From positions 13,994-77,993 of the forward strand of contig CAYYUK010000001.1 in assembly GCA_964474895.1 (NCBI GenBank): 64,000 nt of DNA, written 5' to 3'. Below the pieces are notes generated by a model. It saw only the letters and a program-made list of their open reading frames with translations, did no database searches and was not told the origin of the DNA. Position numbers and translations under genes: made by a program. The stretch is from Candidatus Woesearchaeota archaeon (GTDB lineage Archaea; Nanobdellota; Nanobdellia; SCGC-AAA011-G17; PNOQ01). Positions 8,628 through 63,332 of this stretch are shown in pieces (the stretch's first letter is position 1; every line of letters begins with the position of its first letter).

Positions 8628-8655
8628 AATTCTTAAATTGTTAGGAGGAATAAAA

Positions 8656-8892
8656 ATGAAAAAAATAAAAGTGTATTCGACCCAATCTTGTCCTTATTGT
8701 ACTATGGCCAAGGATTTTTTGAAAGAGAAAGGTGTTGAGTTTGAGGATATAGATGTAAGTGAAGATCAGGCTGCTGCAAAAGAAATGGTTGAAAAATCTG
8801 GTCAAATGGGCGTTCCTGTAATTGATATTGATGGTGAATTAATTGTTGGATTTAACAAGCCAGCTATCGAGAAGGCATTAGAGAAAAGATAA
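8656..8892 (+). CDS. glutaredoxin-like protein (CPYC active site)
   Basis: MKKIKVYSTQSCPYCTMAKDFL... thioredoxin-fold with CPYC; GGAGG Shine-Dalgarno 8 nt upstream. Confidence 0.8.
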   Translation: MKKIKVYSTQSCPYCTMAKDFLKEKGVEFEDIDVSEDQAAAKEMVEKSGQMGVPVIDIDGELIVGFNKPAIEKALEKR

Positions 8893-40539: not shown

Positions 40540-40729
40540 ATTAGCTCAGATGAATGAGAAAGCCTTGGATGATAAAATGGTTGAGCTAAAGAAGGAACTG
40601 ATTAAGATTAATGCTCAGGTTGCGATAGGAACTGTTCCTGAAAATCCTGGAAAAATCAAAGAAATAAAGAGAACTATTGCTAGAATATATACTTTGAAAA
40701 AAATAAAGGGAGGTATTGAAAAGGTATGA
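40517..40729 (+). CDS. rpl29: ribosomal protein L29
   Basis: 70-aa helical protein in canonical position. Confidence 0.85.
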   Translation: MAIIRKNELAQMNEKALDDKMVELKKELIKINAQVAIGTVPENPGKIKEIKRTIARIYTLKKIKGGIEKV

Positions 40730-41028
40730 ACGTCGTATGCCCAAAATGTGGCCTACCAATGGATCTTTGTGTCTGTGAAACCATATCCAAAGAGGAACAA
40801 AGAATAACTGTTAAGAAAGACAAGAAACGTTACGGAAAACTCGTTACGGTTATTAAAGGTCTTGATCAAAACAGTATCAACATAAAGGATTTGGCTAAAC
40901 AACTCAAAAATAAACTTGCTTGTGGTGGAACTTACAAGGATGGAATTATAGAGTTGCAAGGAGATCACATATCGAAGGTTAAGGAAGAGCTTATAAAACT
41001 CGGCTTTAATCCCGACACGATAGAGTAA
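40726..41028 (+). CDS. sui1: translation initiation factor SUI1 (aIF1)
   Basis: N-terminal Cys motif CPKCG..C.C plus SUI1 domain; canonical position between L29 and RNase P p29. Confidence 0.8.
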   Translation: MNVVCPKCGLPMDLCVCETISKEEQRITVKKDKKRYGKLVTVIKGLDQNSINIKDLAKQLKNKLACGGTYKDGIIELQGDHISKVKEELIKLGFNPDTIE

Positions 41029-52426: not shown

Positions 52427-52453
52427 TATTCACCTATCCATGGAGGTATTAAA

Positions 52454-52789
52454 ATGGCGGAAGATACAACTGATCAACCAGATGTGAGAAGAGAAGTGCA
52501 GAGGCGGAATAGTAATGACAATGTAGTTTTTATTGGTGGTAAGCCTTTTATGAATTATGTTACGGGTGTGGTAATGCAATTTACAACTCAAAACTCTAAA
52601 GAAATAGTGGTTAAGGCAAGAGGTAAGTTTATTTCAAGGGCTGTGGATGTTGCGGAAGTTGCCAGTAGAAGATTTTTGGAGAATACTTGTGACATTGGTA
52701 AAATTGAGATAGGTAGTGAAGAGTTCAAGAATAAAGAAGGAAAACAAATTAGAGTTTCAACGATAGAGATTACTTTGAACAAGAAGTAA
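52454..52789 (+). CDS. alba: DNA/RNA-binding protein Alba
   Basis: NVVFIGGKPFMNYVTGVVMQF...VKARGKFISRAVDVAEV matches the Alba core. Confidence 0.85.
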   Translation: MAEDTTDQPDVRREVQRRNSNDNVVFIGGKPFMNYVTGVVMQFTTQNSKEIVVKARGKFISRAVDVAEVASRRFLENTCDIGKIEIGSEEFKNKEGKQIRVSTIEITLNKK

Positions 52790-55968: not shown

Positions 55969-57423
55969 TTAACCTTTTATTACTCCAAGAGGTTTTAGTT
56001 TACAAATTTTCTTTCCTATTCCAATTTTGTCTGAAACTTCTGCAACATCTTCTATATTTTTGTAAACACCTGGTGATTCTTCGCTTATTCCTCTGCTTGA
56101 TGCTGCTTTAATATAAATCTTGTTTTTTTCCAATTCTTTTATTGTGCCTTCTGATGTAAATCTTTTGTTTGCTTCGTGTCTTGACATTAATCTTCCTGCT
56201 CCGTGTGCAGTGCTTGAAAATGTTTCATCCATTGCTTTATCTGTTCCTGCAAGTAAATAAGATGATGTTCCCATACTACCAGGTAAAAGTATTGGTTGGC
56301 CTGTTTTTTTATATTTTTTTGGAAGTTCTTTGTGTCCAGGACCAAAACTTCTAGTTGCTCCTTTCCTATGGATATAAACTTTCTTTACTTTTCCATTGAT
56401 TTTGTACTCTTCAATTTTAACTATGTTATGAGCAACATCATAAACAAGATTTAGATTAATCTTTGATCCAAAGACTTTTTTGAACGATTCTCTCATATAA
56501 TGTGTTATTATTTGTCTGTTGCACCACCCGTAGTTTGCAGCAGCACTCATTGCCCCAAGATAATCTTTTGCTAGTTGTGACCCTGTTGGTGCATAAATTA
56601 AATCTTTATCTGGAAGTTTTTTCACAATCTCTGGAAATTCATCCTCCATTCTTCTTAAGTAGTCGCTACAGACTTGGTGTCCCAATCCCCTTGATCCTGA
56701 GTGAACCATCACTACAATTTGATTTTCCTTTGTTATTCCAAAAGTCTCTGCAATTTCTTTGTCATAAATTTCTTCTACGTACTGTAATTCTATGAAATGA
56801 TTGCCCGCTCCTAAAGTTCCTAACTGTTTTCTTCCTCTCTTCTTTGCTTTTGGTGAAACCTTTGAGAAATCTGCAGTCTTCATGTGTCCTTTTTCTTCAC
56901 AAAGCTCTACATCTTCTTTTGTTGCATATTTGTTTTCTAATGCCCAATCTACACCAGTGTTTAGCACTTCTTTGTAGTCTTCATCACTTAATCTTAAATT
57001 TGACTCCTTGCCAATCCCACAAGGAATATCTTCGAACAGTTGGTTGATTAATTCTTTTATTTTTGATTCAACTTCTTCTTTTGTTAGTTTAGTTGTTAAT
57101 AATCTTACTCCGCAGTTTATGTCAAATCCTGTTACACCTGGTGAAATACATCCCTTTTCTATGTCAAATGCTGCTACACCGCCCACTGGTGCCCCGTACC
57201 CTTGGTGAGCATCAGGCATCATTAGAGATGCTTTTTGAATTCCTGGCAAGGTTGATAGATTAACTGCCTGTTGTATTGAGTCATCTTGCTTTATTTTGTT
57301 TAGAATTTTTTCTGAAGCAAAGATCTTTACTGGGACGTTCATATCCCCTTCTTTGTCTATCTTGTAAACATTTTCTCTTACTTTCTTTATTTTCCAATCT
57401 TTCATTTTAAGTATCGACCACAA
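55969..57423 (-). CDS. rtcB: RNA-splicing ligase RtcB
   Basis: 484 aa; metal-binding Cys/His motifs and SSTAHGAGRLMSR (H-GAGR) RtcB signature. Confidence 0.9.
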   Translation of the reverse strand: MWSILKMKDWKIKKVRENVYKIDKEGDMNVPVKIFASEKILNKIKQDDSIQQAVNLSTLPGIQKASLMMPDAHQGYGAPVGGVAAFDIEKGCISPGVTGFDINCGVRLLTTKLTKEEVESKIKELINQLFEDIPCGIGKESNLRLSDEDYKEVLNTGVDWALENKYATKEDVELCEEKGHMKTADFSKVSPKAKKRGRKQLGTLGAGNHFIELQYVEEIYDKEIAETFGITKENQIVVMVHSGSRGLGHQVCSDYLRRMEDEFPEIVKKLPDKDLIYAPTGSQLAKDYLGAMSAAANYGWCNRQIITHYMRESFKKVFGSKINLNLVYDVAHNIVKIEEYKINGKVKKVYIHRKGATRSFGPGHKELPKKYKKTGQPILLPGSMGTSSYLLAGTDKAMDETFSSTAHGAGRLMSRHEANKRFTSEGTIKELEKNKIYIKAASSRGISEESPGVYKNIEDVAEVSDKIGIGKKICKLKPLGVIKG

Positions 57424-57817
57424 CTGTTGCTTCGTAACCCTTTTTAGTTTTTTTTATTTCCATATCGCTGTATGTTACTGCCTTTATATCACTTTTTAAC
57501 TCGTAGTTGTTACAATTGTCTCCTTCTAATGTTGCAGTTAGTTCAAAGTCGTCTGTTACTTTAATTTGTTTTACTTTGTGTAAGAAAAAATGTTCAGTAT
57601 CTAACAAAAATAACAACTCTTGTAAGAAATCATACAACAATTGATCATAACTTTTTGTTTTTACTTTAATCTTCTTGGTTTTTGTTGATTTTACTTTGTT
57701 TGTTGGTCCTAAAATGTTGAACATTGCAAGTGCAGAATTACTAAAAACAGCGTCGATGTTTCTACCAAATGCTTTAAACTTTACATCTGCAGTGTGACTT
57801 ATGTATTTGTATTGCAT
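57407..57817 (-). CDS. archease (RtcB activator)
   Basis: N-terminal YISHTADVKF, about 136 aa; overlaps rtcB start. Confidence 0.8.
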   Translation of the reverse strand: MQYKYISHTADVKFKAFGRNIDAVFSNSALAMFNILGPTNKVKSTKTKKIKVKTKSYDQLLYDFLQELLFLLDTEHFFLHKVKQIKVTDDFELTATLEGDNCNNYELKSDIKAVTYSDMEIKKTKKGYEATVVVDT

Positions 57818-57933
57818 GTTTTACTTAGTTTTTTGTAAATTAAAAACTTTTTTGTTCTTGTTTTGTTAAAATAACAAGGTTTATAAAGTTTTAATTTTAA
57901 AATTTGCATGTAAATCATACTTTGATTTAGCAA

Positions 57934-57939
57934 AGGAGG
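57934..57939 (+). promoter_or_regulatory. Shine-Dalgarno AGGAGG 8 nt upstream of the basic repeat protein gene
   Basis: Near-perfect anti-SD complement at ideal spacing. Confidence 0.55.
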
Positions 57940-57947
57940 AAAAATAA

Positions 57948-58253
57948 ATGGTAGCTGCAAGAAGAACTACAAAAAGAAAAACTGCAAGAAGAACTACAGC
58001 ACGTAGAACTGTTGCAAAAAGAAAGACAGCAACACGAAGAACTGCTGTTAAGAAAAGAACTACTGCACGAAGAACTACTGCAAAAAGAGCTGTAAGAAGA
58101 ACAACGGCTAAGAGAGCTGTAAGAAGAACAACAGCACGTAGAACTACTGCAAAAAAAGCTGTAAGAAGAACAACAGCTAAGAGAGCTGCAGGAAGAACTA
58201 CTGCAAAGAGAAGAACTACTGCACGTAGAACAGCTGTAAGAAGGAGAAGATAG
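57948..58253 (+). CDS. highly basic low-complexity repeat protein (RRTTAK(R/K)AV repeats)
   Basis: 101 aa, about 45% Arg+Lys, roughly 10 tandem 9-aa repeats (27-nt DNA repeats); TATA-like box and strong SD upstream. Confidence 0.6.
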   Translation: MVAARRTTKRKTARRTTARRTVAKRKTATRRTAVKKRTTARRTTAKRAVRRTTAKRAVRRTTARRTTAKKAVRRTTAKRAAGRTTAKRRTTARRTAVRRRR

Positions 58254-58316
58254 TTTCTCCTTTATTTTTTTTCTTATCAAAACTTATTTATATCCCAATT
58301 TTTATTTTCAGTTAGT

Positions 58317-59246
58317 ATGAAGATTGTTGTTGCTCTTGGTGGGAATGCATTAACCTCTGGAAGGGGTAAGAATACCTATGTAAGTACTATTAATAGTTTG
58401 AAAAGAATTTCTATAATCTTGGCTGATTTGGTAAAGAAAAAACATAATCTTGTTATTACACATGGTTCGGGTCCACAGGCGGGCGCACTTTTGTTACAGA
58501 ATGAATTGTCAAAGAAAAAAGTTTCTAAACTGCCCCTTGATGTACTTGATGCAGAGGTGCAAGGACAGCTTGGTTATTTAATAGAGCAAACTTTACTTAA
58601 TACATTAAATGAACATAGGTTGAGAAAATCTGTTGTCACCTTACTTACACAAGTTGTAGTTGATAGAAAGGATCCTTCTTTTAGACGCCCAAGTAAACCT
58701 ATTGGACAGTTTTATACTAAAACACAACTTAATAAGATAAAGAAGAAAGGTGCTACATACAAAGAAGATTCTGGTAGAGGTTATAGGAGATTTGTTGCAA
58801 GCCCTTATCCTTTGGAGATTGTTGAATCAAAAACAATAAAGAATTTAGTTAAGAAAGGCATAATTGTTATTGCAACTGGTGGTGGTGGGATTCCTGTTTG
58901 TAAGAAAGATGGTCAACTATTTGGTATTGAAGCTGTTATAGACAAAGATTTGGCAAGTAGTGTTTTGGCTAATCAAGTTAAAGCAGATGTTCTACTCATT
59001 GTTACTAGCATCGATAGGGCTTATCTTAATTTTAGAAAAAAGAATCAAAAAGGTTTAAATAAAGTTAAATTGAAAGATGCTATAGTGTACTTGAAACAGG
59101 GACATTTTGCAGAAGGAAGTATGGCTCCAAAAATAATGTCTGCAATTGAGTTTTTGAAAAAAGGTGGTAAGAAAGTTATAATTACTGATCCAGGAAACAT
59201 ATCAAAGTCTATTGCAGGTATGGCTGGAACTACAATAATAAAATGA
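58317..59246 (+). CDS. arcC: carbamate kinase
   Basis: MKIVVALGGNAL N-terminus and amino-acid kinase fold; 309 aa. Confidence 0.88.
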   Translation: MKIVVALGGNALTSGRGKNTYVSTINSLKRISIILADLVKKKHNLVITHGSGPQAGALLLQNELSKKKVSKLPLDVLDAEVQGQLGYLIEQTLLNTLNEHRLRKSVVTLLTQVVVDRKDPSFRRPSKPIGQFYTKTQLNKIKKKGATYKEDSGRGYRRFVASPYPLEIVESKTIKNLVKKGIIVIATGGGGIPVCKKDGQLFGIEAVIDKDLASSVLANQVKADVLLIVTSIDRAYLNFRKKNQKGLNKVKLKDAIVYLKQGHFAEGSMAPKIMSAIEFLKKGGKKVIITDPGNISKSIAGMAGTTIIK

Positions 59247-59292
59247 AAAAAAGAGTTATTGCTATTAAAAGAGACTTAATTTTAAAAAATAG

Positions 59293-59364
59293 TGGGCGCG
59301 GAAGGAATTGAACCTTCATTTCTATCGGGTAAGGATAGCGTCCTAACCATTGGACTACGCGCCG
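59293..59364 (-). tRNA. atypical tRNA-like gene (Val, anticodon TAC?)
   Basis: Cloverleaf-like: D-arm GTCC-AATGGTTA-GGAC, anticodon arm CTATC-CTTACCC-GATAG, T-arm GAAGG-TTCAATT-CCTTC; but C at position 37 and a C1-C72 mismatch. Confidence 0.45.
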
Positions 59365-59368
59365 ATAA

Positions 59369-60145
59369 TCAAATGAAACAATTTGATGTCTCAAAGTATG
59401 CAATATGGTCTAATTTAGATTTATTAAGCTTTCTAAACAAGTTAATTGATTGTTGGAAATTTTGCCAAGAACATTTTGGCAAAATGAATATTGAAGTATC
59501 AATTTTTTGTTCAATTAGATCTAGGTAGTACATTACCAATGCTGAGATACAATAATTGTCTGCTTTTTCATATTTTTTGTTTATCTTATTTCTCCTAATC
59601 AGATGTTCAATTCTATTGCTTAGTTTTTTCTCAGTAAAAATAACTTCTTTGTTCCACCCACAAGGCAAAACATCTTTTTCTGTTAATCCATGTTTTTTTA
59701 GGATTCTCTTAAACTTTTTTGGCAACTGGATTTTTTTAAAGATTATTTTACGAGATTTTTTGGTTAACCCTATATCATTTAACATCAAAGAGATTTTAGC
59801 ATTAATATTTTTCTCTTTAAGAGATTTTACTAATTGACAACCTAGAGACCAAGTCTTGGTTGGGTTTCTTCCAATATCTTCATAATCGTCACTATTTGGG
59901 ATAAAATGTCCGGCATTAACAACTATACTTTTATTTTTGAGATATTTTACAACCTTATTACTAAATACCTTAAAATTTGCTTGTTCTTTTTTTTCAGTAA
60001 TGGAATCATAGTAGTTAAAATTTAATTTAGATAACTCCTTCCATTTTGTACATATTGGATCTTTGAAATTATTTTTATTTAGCATTATTATGCAAAGATA
60101 ACCATACTTAATAAATTTTTGGATGAATTGTAGTCTTCTTGACAC
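59369..60145 (-). CDS. hypothetical K-rich protein
   Basis: 258-aa ORF with very low GC; no motif recognised. Confidence 0.4.
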   Translation of the reverse strand: MSRRLQFIQKFIKYGYLCIIMLNKNNFKDPICTKWKELSKLNFNYYDSITEKKEQANFKVFSNKVVKYLKNKSIVVNAGHFIPNSDDYEDIGRNPTKTWSLGCQLVKSLKEKNINAKISLMLNDIGLTKKSRKIIFKKIQLPKKFKRILKKHGLTEKDVLPCGWNKEVIFTEKKLSNRIEHLIRRNKINKKYEKADNYCISALVMYYLDLIEQKIDTSIFILPKCSWQNFQQSINLFRKLNKSKLDHIAYFETSNCFI

Positions 60146-60200: not shown

Positions 60201-61160
60201 AATCAGATAGTAAATAAAATAAAATTTAACAGGAATCCTGAATTAAATAAAGATGTTTCCTGGCTTATTGGGTTCTACTTGGCCGAAGGACTTAGAAAAA
60301 CTAAAGATTCAATAGGCGTAAGTAATGCAGAACCTTACCTAATACTTAAATCTCTTGGAATATTTGAAAAGTATTTTTGGATTAAAACTGATAATTGGAA
60401 AGTATTCATAAAAACAGATGAAAGAGAGAAAAGTAAATTGAGAAAAATATTAAATAAGTGGGATAACAATCTTGGACTGGTTACTAGATCATCTTATTCT
60501 AGTTTGGCTAAAAATCAAGCTGTTGATGTGAGGCTAAACAGCAGAATTTTAAATAAATTCCTAAAAGATTATATCAAAAAATCCCTAGCATTGATATCTA
60601 AAGATAGAACTCTATCTGAATACTTCTTAAGAGGTTATTTTGTTGGAGATGGATGTCCTATCAAAAGAAAGGATCAAATACACAGTATAACAATAACAAC
60701 AAAAGAAGAAACCCATTTAAAATTTTTGGTTGAGATTATGAACTTCTTTTTTGGTAAGATGCCAAACGTTAGATTGACTAAAAAATCTTACGAAATTTAT
60801 TATTGTGCTGTTGGAATAATAACTGAAGCGATACTTGCTAAGATTTTTATAGATTCGGAGAGACAGTGGAATAAATTTGTAAATGGGTATAAAAATAAAC
60901 AATACACGCGAGCGAGGATAAAATATTGGAAAGAAATTGCTTTTCATTCTTTAACCTCTTATGAAATAGCCAAATTATCTGGAAATTCTCATTGGTCTGT
61001 AAGTGATGCTTTGAATAAAGATATTAAACTTGGATTAGTTGATTCATCTTGCAAACAAATACATAAATTTGGTGCACCTGCCAAGAGTTATTCGTTAAGT
61101 TTAAAAGGATTGAAATTGTTAAACCTCTTAGAAGGGGTAGATAGTTATGAAAAAATATAG
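60201..61160 (+). mobile_element. LAGLIDADG-family homing endonuclease gene (double-motif), lacking a canonical ATG start
   Basis: First motif DVSWLIGFYLAEG (60252-60290) and second EYFLRGYFVGDGC; open frame starts after the stop at 60198-60200 with no in-frame ATG before the first motif (first TTG at 60279). Confidence 0.6.
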
Positions 61161-62448
61161 AGTTATTATTTCGGGGGCAGGGGGGCGTGATTTTTCAAAT
61201 TATCTAGTTTATTTCAAGAAAAACCCCAATTATGAAGTTGTTGCATTTACTGCTGCACAGATTCCTGGAATTGAAAAGAGAGTTTTCCCAAAGAAGTTAG
61301 CAAAAGGAAAAAGCATTCCTATTTATTCTGAAGAGAATCTTACTAAATTGATCAAATCTTTGAAAATTGATTATGTTTTCTTGAGTTATTCTGATCTTAG
61401 TGACCAATATGTTATGAATTTTGCATCAAAAGTTTTGAGTGCTGGCGCAAACTTTGGTTTACTTGGAACTAAAGATACTTATGTCAAATCTAAAAAACCT
61501 GTAATTGCTGTGACTGCTGTTAGAACTGGTTCTGGGAAAAGTCAAACTTCTAGAGCTATTGCTGAAATTTTAAGGAAGAAAGGTAAGAAAGTTGTTGCTA
61601 TCAGACATTCAATGCCTTATGGTAATCTGTTGAAACAAACATCTCAAAGATTTGAGAAAGAATCTGATTTTAAGAAGTATAAAACAACGATTGAAGAAGA
61701 AGAGGAATATCAACCTTGGATTGATCATGGCTTTGTTGTTTATTCCGGATTTGATTATAAGGAAATATTAAGTAAGGCCGAGAAAGAAGCAGATGTTATT
61801 ATATTTGATGGTGGAAACAATGATATCTCTTTTATTAAACCTGATTTGTTAATTACTGTTGTTGATCCGCATAGAGCTGGACATGAGTTGACTTATTATC
61901 CTGGTTTCGTTAATTTTCTTATGGCAGATGTTATTGTTGTGAATAAAGTAGATAGTGCTAAGAAAAAAGATATTGAAACTGTAAAATGGAATATCTTTAA
62001 GCACAATCCGGGGGCGGCTGTTGTTTTGGCCAAATCTGAATTGTTGATAAATAAGTCTGGTTCAATAAAGGGAAAAAGATGTGTTGTTGTTGGTGATGGT
62101 CCTACTTTAACCCATGGTGGTATGGGTTATGGTGCGGGATCCATTGCTGTTAGAAGACATGGTGGGAAATTTGTAAATGCTAAGAAATATGCTGTTGGTT
62201 CTTTGAAGAAGACTTTTAAAAAATATTCCCACTTGAATGAGGTTCCTGCAATGGGCTATAGTGGAAAACAGATTAAGGAATTAGAAAAAACAGTTAATCG
62301 GACTCCTTGTGATGTTGTTATTGATGGTACTCCTGCAAATTTGAAGAAATTGATTTCTGTGAATAAACCAATGATTGAAGTTGATTATGAATTGGGTGAA
62401 GATTCTGTTAGACATCTAAAGAATATTCTTTCGAGGAAGTTGAAATGA
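61147..62448 (+). CDS. P-loop NTPase-domain protein, possibly cyclic 2,3-diphosphoglycerate synthetase-like
   Basis: Walker A AVRTGSGKSQTS in the middle of a 433-aa protein with N-terminal Rossmann-like VIISGAGGRD; sits between carbamate kinase and carbamoyltransferase. Confidence 0.35.
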   Translation: MKKYRVIISGAGGRDFSNYLVYFKKNPNYEVVAFTAAQIPGIEKRVFPKKLAKGKSIPIYSEENLTKLIKSLKIDYVFLSYSDLSDQYVMNFASKVLSAGANFGLLGTKDTYVKSKKPVIAVTAVRTGSGKSQTSRAIAEILRKKGKKVVAIRHSMPYGNLLKQTSQRFEKESDFKKYKTTIEEEEEYQPWIDHGFVVYSGFDYKEILSKAEKEADVIIFDGGNNDISFIKPDLLITVVDPHRAGHELTYYPGFVNFLMADVIVVNKVDSAKKKDIETVKWNIFKHNPGAAVVLAKSELLINKSGSIKGKRCVVVGDGPTLTHGGMGYGAGSIAVRRHGGKFVNAKKYAVGSLKKTFKKYSHLNEVPAMGYSGKQIKELEKTVNRTPCDVVIDGTPANLKKLISVNKPMIEVDYELGEDSVRHLKNILSRKLK

Positions 62449-63332
62449 AACATTTTTTGACATTGAAAGATTATAGTTCTAAGGAGTTGTTGGGTTTAAT
62501 TAAACTTGGTCGTAAGATAAAGATGACTCCTTCTAAGTATGAGAATAAATTGAGGGGGAAAGTTCTTCTTATGTTATTTGCCAAACCTAGTTTGAGAACT
62601 CGCTTGAGTTTTGAAATTGGAATGCTTGGTCTTGGAGGTCATGCAATCTTTTATGATATTTCTACAAGTCCTTTAGGTAAGAAGGAGAGTATTAGAGATG
62701 GTTCTGCGGTTTCTACGCGTTATGTTGATATTGTAATGGCTCGTTTGTATGAACATAAAGATATTGAAGAGTTTGCTTCTCATTCTTCTGTTCCTGTAAT
62801 TAATGGTTTGACCAATAGTTATCATCCTTGTCAGGCTCTTGGTGATATGTTGACTATTTGGGAGAAGTTTCATGGGTTTAATGTTAAATTAGCTTATTTG
62901 GGTGATGCTAATAACAATGTTACTCATTCTTTGATGTATGCTTGCTCTAAATTGGGTGTTAAAATGCAAATTGCTTGTCCTAAGTCTAAAGAGTTTATGC
63001 CTGATTCTCGGGTTGTAAAAGAAACTGGAGTTAAAGTTGTTAGTTTGAAAGAAGCAGTTAGGGGTGCTGACGTTATTTATTCTGATTCTTGGAGATCATA
63101 TCATATTAAAGATAGTCAGATGAAACGTAGGTTGAAGGCTTTGAAAAAATATCAAGTTAATTCTAAAACTTTTGGTCGCAAAGCTTTGTTTATGCACTGT
63201 TTGCCCGCTACACGTGGTGAAGAAGTTACTGATCAAGTTATGGATAGTCCTAGAAGTGTTATTCTAGATCAGGCAGAGAATCGTGAGCATATTGAGAAAG
63301 CTATTATGTTGAAGTTGATGCGGAAGGGTTGA
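62445..63332 (+). CDS. ornithine-type carbamoyltransferase (OTC/ATC superfamily)
   Basis: STRTR carbamoyl-phosphate motif (PSLRTRLSFE), HPCQ, HCLP(A)TRGEEV. Confidence 0.8.
   Translation: MKHFLTLKDYSSKELLGLIKLGRKIKMTPSKYENKLRGKVLLMLFAKPSLRTRLSFEIGMLGLGGHAIFYDISTSPLGKKESIRDGSAVSTRYVDIVMARLYEHKDIEEFASHSSVPVINGLTNSYHPCQALGDMLTIWEKFHGFNVKLAYLGDANNNVTHSLMYACSKLGVKMQIACPKSKEFMPDSRVVKETGVKVVSLKEAVRGADVIYSDSWRSYHIKDSQMKRRLKALKKYQVNSKTFGRKALFMHCLPATRGEEVTDQVMDSPRSVILDQAENREHIEKAIMLKLMRKG

Follow-up and report, generated by a model that had tools for sequence, protein, structure and literature searches.

Pentamer-repeat polycations encoded beside archease in Woesearchaeota: a conserved gene family and its possible role in coating nucleic acids

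The window, by which we mean the whole 64-kb stretch of DNA that was analysed, comes from a marine Woesearchaeota (DPANN) archaeon, which occurs in oxygen-minimum-zone samples. Its G+C content is ~32%, and the nearest relatives of its archease among the GTDB species genomes belong to metagenome-assembled genomes of Candidatus Woesearchaeota, several of them from Saanich Inlet-type 'SI' bins. The subject of this work is a small gene on the plus strand that diverges from the archease-RtcB gene pair, is followed by a carbamate-kinase-like gene (Table 1), and encodes an extremely basic pentamer-repeat protein of 101 aa with the predicted sequence MVAARRTTKRKTARRTTARRTVAKRKTATRRTAVKKRTTARRTTAKRAVRRTTAKRAVRRTTARRTTAKKAVRRTTAKRAAGRTTAKRRTTARRTAVRRRR. 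The sequence-only reading of this DNA, made before any database search, had proposed the open reading frame (ORF) together with an Arg+Lys content of about 45% and an essential lack of acidic residues. All of this is borne out: the frame runs from ATG to TAG, K+R amount to 44.6%, D+E to zero, and the net charge is ~+45. Five residue types make up essentially the whole protein (R33 T26 A21 K12 V7 M1 G1), for which a pI of ~12 and a mass of 11.7 kDa were computed.

The repeat unit of the protein is the pentamer A(R/K)(R/K)T(T/V), present in ~19 copies. Tandem Repeats Finder (TRF) detected a 15-nt period over nearly the whole gene (19.7 copies, 59% match) and the autocorrelation of positive charge is highest at lag 5 (0.61, a value reached by 0 of 5000 residue shuffles), hence the pentamer is the building block. 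A secondary maximum lies at lag 9 (0.30, reached by 2 of 5000 shuffles), and the nonamer combines a block of four residues with one of five. About ten 9-aa repeats encoded by 27-nt units had been assumed earlier, which did not stand up to the analysis, as the 9-mer A[KR][KR]A[VA][RG]RTT occurs only four times (at residues 45, 54, 68 and 77), the exact AVRRTTAKR twice, and TRF found no more than two short 27-nt tracts of 2.5 and 2.7 copies beside the dominant 15-nt period. The 27-nt (9-aa) sub-repeats are enclosed in a 69-nt (23-aa) higher-order repeat, RTTARRTTAKRAVRRTTAKRAVR, the copies of which differ mainly at third codon positions. The repetition goes well beyond chance and is kept in related genomes.

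The gene forms a monocistronic unit, because it has its own promoter, Shine-Dalgarno (SD) sequence and terminator. The TATA-like box ggtttataaag named in the sequence-only reading lies at 57878-57888 and contains the palindromic octamer TTTATAAA, which is preceded by an A-rich stretch resembling a B recognition element (BRE). The octamer occurs at seven sites in the window (9515, 20000, 20470, 25635, 33934, 36014 and 57880), of which one lies ~33 nt upstream of tRNA-Ile (25668) and another upstream of tRNA-Glu (33911, minus strand). Its placement before tRNA genes suggests that it represents the strong-promoter form in this genome. By analogy with these tRNA genes, the transcription start of the basic gene would be expected near 57907-57913, which would leave a leader of ~40 nt. 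The 5' leader contains a 7-bp inverted repeat, TAAATCA-N5-TGATTTA, the stems of which are kept in the Arg/Thr clade described below, with a different loop in loci L005 and L084, and which is absent from the Lys-type loci; folding z-scores of the 5' untranslated regions were weak (-1.8 to +1.6; window -1.8) and no structure common to the family was found among them. The AGGAGG sequence predicted at ideal spacing is likewise present, and GGAGG(TG) is conserved in the orthologues. A strong SD (AGGAGG or GGAGGT with a start codon and a real ORF) was found at 4 of ~82 genes in the window, the others belonging to genes for a glutaredoxin-like protein, aSUI1 and Alba, and most window genes seem to be without an SD. 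The terminator is a hairpin across the stop codon followed by a T tract, and every orthologue has an oligo-T tract after its stop codon. Together, the promoter and SD signals would predict strong expression.

The other candidate coding functions of this segment were rejected. An antisense ORF of 117 aa is open across the repeat; its counterparts in the Lys-type orthologues are Phe/Leu/Thr-rich, so the protein is unconserved, and promoter, SD and terminator all point along the plus strand. This ORF is a by-product of the repeat. A role of the basic ORF as a leader peptide or upstream ORF was also dismissed, because the downstream gene differs among lineages and a terminator follows the ORF.

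The gene belongs to a family conserved by position in Woesearchaeota. All six frames of archease-oriented loci were scanned for basic, acid-free ORFs, and a basic repeat gene divergent from archease, equipped with the same TATA box, SD and terminator, was found in 23 fetched related loci (~15 distinct sequences), 115-137 bp upstream of archease. The carriers include the species-genome loci L004, L005, L007, L010, L011, L012, L014, L015, L025 and L066 and the metagenome-contig loci L084 (contig Ga0233431_1002750), L087, L088, L096, L097 and L098. Wherever the basic gene occurs among these loci it stands beside archease, and this linkage is the sole conserved synteny. The gene downstream varies by lineage: it is carbamate-kinase-like in the window and in L084, whereas L004, L005 and L025 have an aminotransferase there and the other loci a convergent thioredoxin; thus the back-to-back promoter pair with archease is the only stable linkage. 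The only clade locus without the basic gene is L009, where an aminotransferase gene abuts archease. A scan by composition and SD revealed no other such gene elsewhere in ~0.9 Mb of the fetched loci, and the window contains no second one.

The alignment of 15 orthologous intergenic regions revealed an invariant TTATAAA and a conserved GGAGG(TG), so that the own promoter and strong SD claimed for the gene are both conserved, with the terminator, across the family. A second invariant TATA-like element (T..AAA(A), alignment columns 23-29) faces archease, which probably has a leaderless arrangement. The proteins all begin with MVA(A)R(R/K) and end in KKRKR or RRRR, and they have in common a charge period of 5 residues, which is dominant at lag 5 in most of the 15 aligned members and weak in four orthologues with a heptad-periodic core. 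The window gene shows every feature by which we define the family, i.e., divergence from archease, TTTATAAA, the GGAGG(TG) SD, oligo-T, K+R above 40%, practically no acidic residues, and the lag-5 period.

Placed on the archease tree, the family members represent several morphs. The Arg/Thr type (99-101 aa) is found in the window, L084 and L005. The Lys type (78-110 aa), composed of KKKAV, KKKVT or KKKPA pentamers, is found in L004, L007, L010, L015, L025, L066, L088, L096, L097 and L098, and a Lys type of 88-118 aa with a 21-nt (heptad-periodic) central segment in L011, L012, L014 and L087. This heptad core (KKKVSKA / DKKKLVK), which contains a few acidic residues, may be a coiled-coil or dimerisation core between the pentamer arrays. 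In L006, L008, L085 and L086 the promoter and SD are kept and the ORF has collapsed to a mini form of 19 aa, MAAKKKATKKKATKKK(S/A)KR, which may be a functional micro-polycation. That the Arg/Thr type arose from the Lys type by a frameshift was rejected, as the other frames of the window gene read no Lys pentamers; AAA-to-AGA transitions fit the Arg codons of the window gene, which are dominated by AGA (27 of 33), as the route of the Lys-to-Arg/Thr change.

The large-scale searches either came up empty or gave spurious low-complexity matches only. The exact window protein is absent from a collection of 15 billion proteins, phmmer and hmmsearch against 5.8 billion clusters found nothing for it, and the one match that full HMMER returned among 1.84 billion representatives, an acidic-repeat protein (P0004), was spurious. 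With the Lys-type orthologue L004 as the query, the sole match was P0005, a bacterial protein in which the N-terminus is hydrophobic and one stretch is rich in Lys. A profile of the 15 orthologues matched only the Zn-ribbon proteins P0001-P0003 (metagenome; L165 2343-2672), in which a Zn-ribbon-like part (CxxC...CC) is joined to a C-terminal tail of KKKPA/KKKAT pentamers ending in KKRR; the tail is of the same kind as the family repeat, but fused to a folded domain. A local HMMER control explains these results: with the bias correction on, the true orthologues L084 and L005 score no more than 39-41 bits and the Lys types disappear, but with it off the orthologues reach 36-117 bits. Because the composition correction suppresses true orthologues, the large-scale negatives are uninformative on the distribution of the family, and its apparent rarity is an artefact of the method.

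Codon differences were counted on protein-guided alignments. Synonymous and nonsynonymous differences numbered 27 and 18 between the window and L005, 28 and 17 between L084 and L005, 27 and 11 between L004 and L010, 19 and 2 between L010 and L066, and 4 and 1 between the 19-aa forms of L006 and L008, the archease genes of which are 85% identical in nucleotides; for the window and L084 they numbered 16 and 22, in a comparison where repeat re-arrangement makes the alignment uncertain. Between the window and L005, 34 differences fall on third codon positions, as against 14 and 13 on positions one and two, and the nonsynonymous changes are mainly K/R, T/A and V/T swaps. The counts thus indicate purifying selection in this frame, including its 19-aa form. 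The sequence-only reading had staked the gene on conservation of the frame in related genomes, and there the frame is kept, with the synonymous excess described.

These data bear on the possibility that the array is a tandem DNA repeat without protein function, open in one frame by chance. The openness of the antisense strand and the failure of the searches to find the sequence or relatives by hidden Markov models would fit such a repeat, but the latter is explained by the HMMER bias correction. Moreover, genomes with archease identities as low as 44-70% agree in frame, start context, termini, promoter, SD and terminator, synonymous changes outnumber nonsynonymous ones, and repeat periods are nearly all multiples of three. 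We consider this explanation barely credible, and the conservation data effectively refute it.

The repeat array itself turns over rapidly. Tandem periods in 12 orthologues are nearly all divisible by three, and every lineage has its own higher-order unit (69 nt in the window, 45 nt in L084, 78 and 129 nt in L005, 75 nt in L004, 60 nt in L088 and 27 nt in L015). The archease DNA of the window and L084 is 93% identical and the basic genes are 81% identical with 48 gap columns. In a sister species, the loci L015, L096, L097 and L098 share 677 nt of archease, intergenic and downstream DNA at 100% identity, and their basic genes measure 264, 264, 237 and 291 nt, differing in in-frame 27-nt units only; this copy-number polymorphism is open to collapse in short-read assembly, yet two independent assemblies agree on four copies. 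The suggestion that the array is a hotspot of length variation is thus confirmed, with a range of 19-118 aa in the family. The exact window sequence is present on at least 24 assembly contigs, three of which were shown to be 100% identical in DNA and are uninformative on within-species variation.

The only Pfam match of the window protein is HC2 (PF07382), at 26.9 bits against a cutoff of 40, and in NCBIfam it reaches 20.9 bits against a cutoff of 80 with NF038053 (BpH1, the H1-like protein of Burkholderia and Bordetella) and 18 bits against a cutoff of 135 with NF038052 (Hc2). The HC2 match follows composition, not descent, since L084 passes the cutoff (40.2), L005 stays below it (26.4) and the Lys-type orthologues give no match. 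Homology to Hc2 cannot be claimed, because the match is low-complexity and lies around or below the family cutoffs; the resemblance is compositional and periodic. Pfam gave no match of the 101-aa protein to the linker-histone globular domain (Linker_histone, E<=1), to archaeal chromatin folds (histone fold, Alba, Cren7, Sul7d, MC1, HU), or to ribosomal or RNA-binding families, and a sequence search of the PDB found no relative. The protein had been likened to histone H1/Hc1-like or AlgP-like nucleoid proteins rather than to any standard archaeal chromatin protein. This is right insofar as its only matches are Hc2 and BpH1 and it matches no standard archaeal chromatin family, but the Hc1-like and AlgP-like architectures, with a structured domain and a tail, are absent.

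The chlamydial Hc2 (hctB) is the best database match. It is made of basic pentamers arranged in 36-aa elements that are duplicated or deleted in frame, which yields variants of 165-237 aa, and it condenses DNA and binds RNA with high affinity; similar pentamer proteins of Bordetella and Burkholderia vary in size by repeat number (PMC2848022). The archaeal protein shares with Hc2 the near-entirely basic pentamers with A/T/V, the higher-order elements and the in-frame copy variation. It differs in being half the size, Arg/Thr-rich instead of Lys-rich, archaeal, and not known to go with a developmental cycle, and where Hc2 has conserved non-repeat flanks the archaeal family shares only ~5-6 terminal residues (MVARKK..., ...KKRKR/RRRR). 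With the architecture of the Hc2 kind, scores under the cutoffs and no such flanks, we regard it as a functional analogue and not a member. BpH1 is similar in its consecutive basic pentamers and its size variation through repeat number, but is a betaproteobacterial protein of 149-231 aa and the score of the window protein is far under its cutoff.

The AlgP/PhaF proteins resemble the family in their low-complexity basic repeat and H1-tail-like composition, and the Lys-type orthologues (KKKPA/KKKPV) are nearer to them in composition than the window protein. KPAA-repeat peptides of AlgP bind DNA, its KPAA tail spaces polyphosphate granules, and its repeat number is a mutational hotspot, as here; however, its unit is a Pro-containing tetramer with one Lys, attached to a helical N-terminal domain of 124 aa (PMC9239181). 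The window protein has neither Pro nor a second domain, its charge density is higher, and its period is 5, not 4. The Lys-rich PAKKA-type tails of actinobacterial HupB/MDP1 and Ku are likewise low-complexity basic repeats and modulate DNA binding (PMC3553676); those tails are appendages on folded DNA-binding domains, whereas here the repeat is the whole protein. The standard archaeal chromatin proteins (histone fold, Alba, Cren7/Sul7d, MC1, HTa) are likewise small, basic and presumably abundant, but they are folded domains with Pfam models of their own. The Alba gene, whose presence elsewhere in the window had been noted correctly, shares with the basic repeat gene the otherwise rare strong SD. 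The C-terminal tail of histone H1 and the sperm protamines are disordered polycations that neutralise the charge of DNA. The Lys-type orthologues are like the H1 tail in their Lys/Ala/Pro/Val/Thr composition and the Arg richness of the window protein recalls protamines; on the other hand, it has no winged-helix domain, Arg accounts for 33% as against ~60% in protamines, and Cys and S/TPKK motifs are absent.

The gene family and the way it evolves rest on good evidence, and from the comparisons above we infer its function. Our preferred reading, which we hold with moderate confidence, is that the protein is an abundant, sequence-nonspecific polycation that coats nucleic acids, a functional counterpart of Hc2/BpH1 and of the H1 tail. 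By itself the chain is probably disordered. It would attach to phosphate backbones through electrostatic attraction and neutralise their charge, condense or bridge DNA and probably RNA as well, and act beside Alba (and histones, if the genome has them). The array would expand, contract and be re-templated by slippage or unequal recombination as selection keeps charge density and frame, which would account for the lineage-specific higher-order unit and length. Selection keeps the charge density, the period of five residues, the basic character of the ends, the frame and the signals for strong expression; it does not keep sequence, the identity of the basic residue, repeat order or length. A non-specific electrostatic ligand of polyanions fits this pattern, and a defined binding site or a role like that of a ribosomal protein is disfavoured by it.

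Several observations weigh against this reading. The H1-like similarity is low-complexity, driven by composition and below cutoff for the window protein; nonsynonymous differences outnumber synonymous ones between the window and L084; and the 19-aa form, which persists under selection, is short for an architectural protein of chromatin. The persistence of this form shows that a short oligocation suffices in some lineages. Moreover, an AlphaFold2 (AF2) single-sequence model shows one long helix instead of disorder (residues 2-100, predicted local distance difference test 92, predicted template modelling score 0.45). We do not extend this helix to the whole family, given the many prolines of the Lys-type orthologues. 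In the absence of a counter-ion, a naked helix of such positive charge would hardly be stable, and the model may at most point to helical propensity upon charge neutralisation. Finally, the sole conserved neighbour, archease-RtcB, is an RNA-repair/tRNA-ligation pair and could point to RNA.

The last point leads to the possibility that the protein is an RNA-directed polycation, i.e., an RNA chaperone or a counter-ion associated with tRNA or the ribosome, co-regulated with archease-RtcB through the shared divergent promoter region. The archease linkage has survived at least three changes of the downstream neighbour, and a peptide of 19 aa could fill RNA grooves. Nevertheless, a back-to-back promoter pair within 130 bp resists breakpoints whatever its function, which makes the linkage weak evidence; the family varies too much in length, sequence and Lys/Arg identity for a defined site on RNA or the ribosome, and no RNA-binding or ribosomal Pfam family is matched. 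We consider this RNA-directed role rather unlikely. For the nucleic-acid-coating polycation that we favour, Hc2, BpH1 and the H1 tail suggest DNA as the main target, and the archease-RtcB linkage and the RNA affinity of Hc2 make RNA a serious alternative.

The conservation of nothing but charge density and periodicity would also suit a general organiser of polyanions or a polyamine surrogate, neutralising bulk nucleic acid or organising polyphosphate or other anionic granules as the tails of AlgP and PhaF do, in a reduced genome possibly without polyamine synthesis. The 19-aa forms resemble an oligolysine counter-ion, and their persistence under purifying selection keeps the reading as a 'gene-encoded polyamine' in consideration. 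However, AlgP and PhaF have a structured N-terminal domain that is missing here, and nothing in the 64-kb window indicates polyphosphate metabolism or an absence of polyamine genes, for which no dedicated search was made. We consider this explanation improbable.

Arg-rich polycations penetrate membranes. The protein could accordingly be imagined as an exported polycation directed against membranes of a host or competitors, similar to antimicrobial or cell-penetrating peptides, from an episymbiotic DPANN cell, and fast repeat turnover is also known for proteins under arms-race selection. But selection is purifying here, not diversifying, the N-terminus (MVAARRTT) has no hydrophobic signal, the composition count gives no hydrophobic or aromatic residues in the 101-aa protein, and there are neither secretion genes nearby nor a context of PADLOC or PHROG type. 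Such a role seems very improbable.

Full-text literature searches found no report of an H1-like repeat protein in archaea; the ones that they returned are bacterial. For Woesearchaeota, a review of archaeal chromatin mentions histones and Alba (PMC6136690), and the AlgP study assigns the H1 family a presumed origin in bacteria and not in archaea (PMC9239181). The present data describe a family of stand-alone H1-tail/Hc2-like polycations in DPANN archaea, defined by position and composition, not by homology. We speculate, with considerable doubt, that DPANN archaea have a class of 'linker-histone-tail' proteins of their own, stand-alone and tunable in length, which together with Alba and histones provide a large part of charge neutralisation and genome compaction, or substitute for polyamines, and which were overlooked since composition filters and trypsin proteomics hide them. 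Trypsin would cleave the 101-aa protein to pieces of 1-5 residues; with this over-cleavage, the HMMER bias correction and collection searches that recover no member, such families are systematically under-counted. If the idea holds, H1-tail-like chromatin components would not be confined to bacteria and eukaryotes, and in the change from Lys to Arg/Thr and the shrinkage to 19 aa one would see natural experiments on the polycation need of a minimal cell. If the protein coats DNA, it would add a missing component to chromatin models for ultra-small archaea. The family also offers a natural series of variants for the study of polycation-driven compaction, with members of 19-118 aa that are rich in Lys or in Arg and have or lack the heptad-periodic core.

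Table 1. Features of the window and of related loci discussed in the text. Positions refer to the window unless a locus is named.
Feature	Position	Strand	Remarks
Glutaredoxin-like gene	8643-8892 (start 8656)		Strong SD
aSUI1 gene	40709-41028 (start 40726)		Strong SD
Alba gene	52454-52789 (with SD 52442-52789)		Pfam 57.8 bits; strong SD; 5.5 kb upstream of basic gene
RtcB gene	55969-57423	-	Pfam RtcB 566 bits; after archease
Archease gene	57407-57817	-	Pfam Archease 133 bits; divergent from basic gene; 130-bp shared promoter region
TATA-like element of archease promoter	57840-57846	-	TTTTTAA; ~25-30 nt before archease ATG
BRE-like stretch	57873-57879	+	A-rich
TATA octamer	57880-57887	+	TTTATAAA
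Leader inverted repeat	57911-57929		7-bp stems
Antisense ORF	57927-58280	-	117 aa; Ser/Cys-rich; open across repeat
Shine-Dalgarno sequence	57934-57939	+	AGGAGG; 8-nt spacer to ATG; GGAGG(TG) in orthologues
Basic repeat gene	57948-58253 (with SD 57934-58253)	+	101-aa polycationic pentamer-repeat protein; ATG start, TAG stop; ORF translation; strong SD
69-nt higher-order repeat	58055-58223	+	TRF 2.4 copies, 86% match, score 255
Terminator hairpin	58240-58263	+	10 bp, across stop codon
Terminator T tract	58265-58272	+	T8
Carbamate-kinase-like gene	58317-59246		AA_kinase; directly downstream of basic gene
tRNA-Val	59292-59364		
258-aa ORF	59369-60145	-	No Pfam family
293-aa ORF	60279-61160	+	LAGLIDADG_3, 24.7 bits (cutoff 22.5)
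Ornithine carbamoyltransferase gene	~62445-63332		4 kb beyond carbamate-kinase-like gene
19-aa form, L006	3810-3869	-	
19-aa form, L008	3810-3869	-	
19-aa form, L085 and L086	2310-2369	-	
Heptad-core orthologue, L011	3526-3882	-	
Heptad-core orthologue, L014	3556-3882	-	
Heptad-core orthologue, L012	1475-1741	-	
Heptad-core orthologue, L087	439-768	-	

The genes that flank the basic gene are housekeeping genes (archease, RtcB, HIT, carbamate-kinase-like, tRNAs and Alba). The protein had no match in PHROGs, and given this and the housekeeping neighbourhood a viral origin was rejected. The carbamate-kinase-like and ornithine carbamoyltransferase genes are parts of an arginine-deiminase-type pathway; their closeness to the gene for an Arg-rich protein is probably coincidental, because the Lys-type loci have other neighbours. 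As listed, the RtcB ORF begins with TTG at 57423 and shares 17 nt (57407-57423) with the 3' end of archease; in L001 the gene caller set the RtcB start six codons later (478 aa), abutting archease, which is consistent with an archease-rtcB operon. Two ORFs adjoin the tRNA-Val gene, and both are conserved in L001 and L003. One of them, of 258 aa, belongs to no Pfam family; the other, of 293 aa, is free-standing and matches LAGLIDADG_3 weakly.

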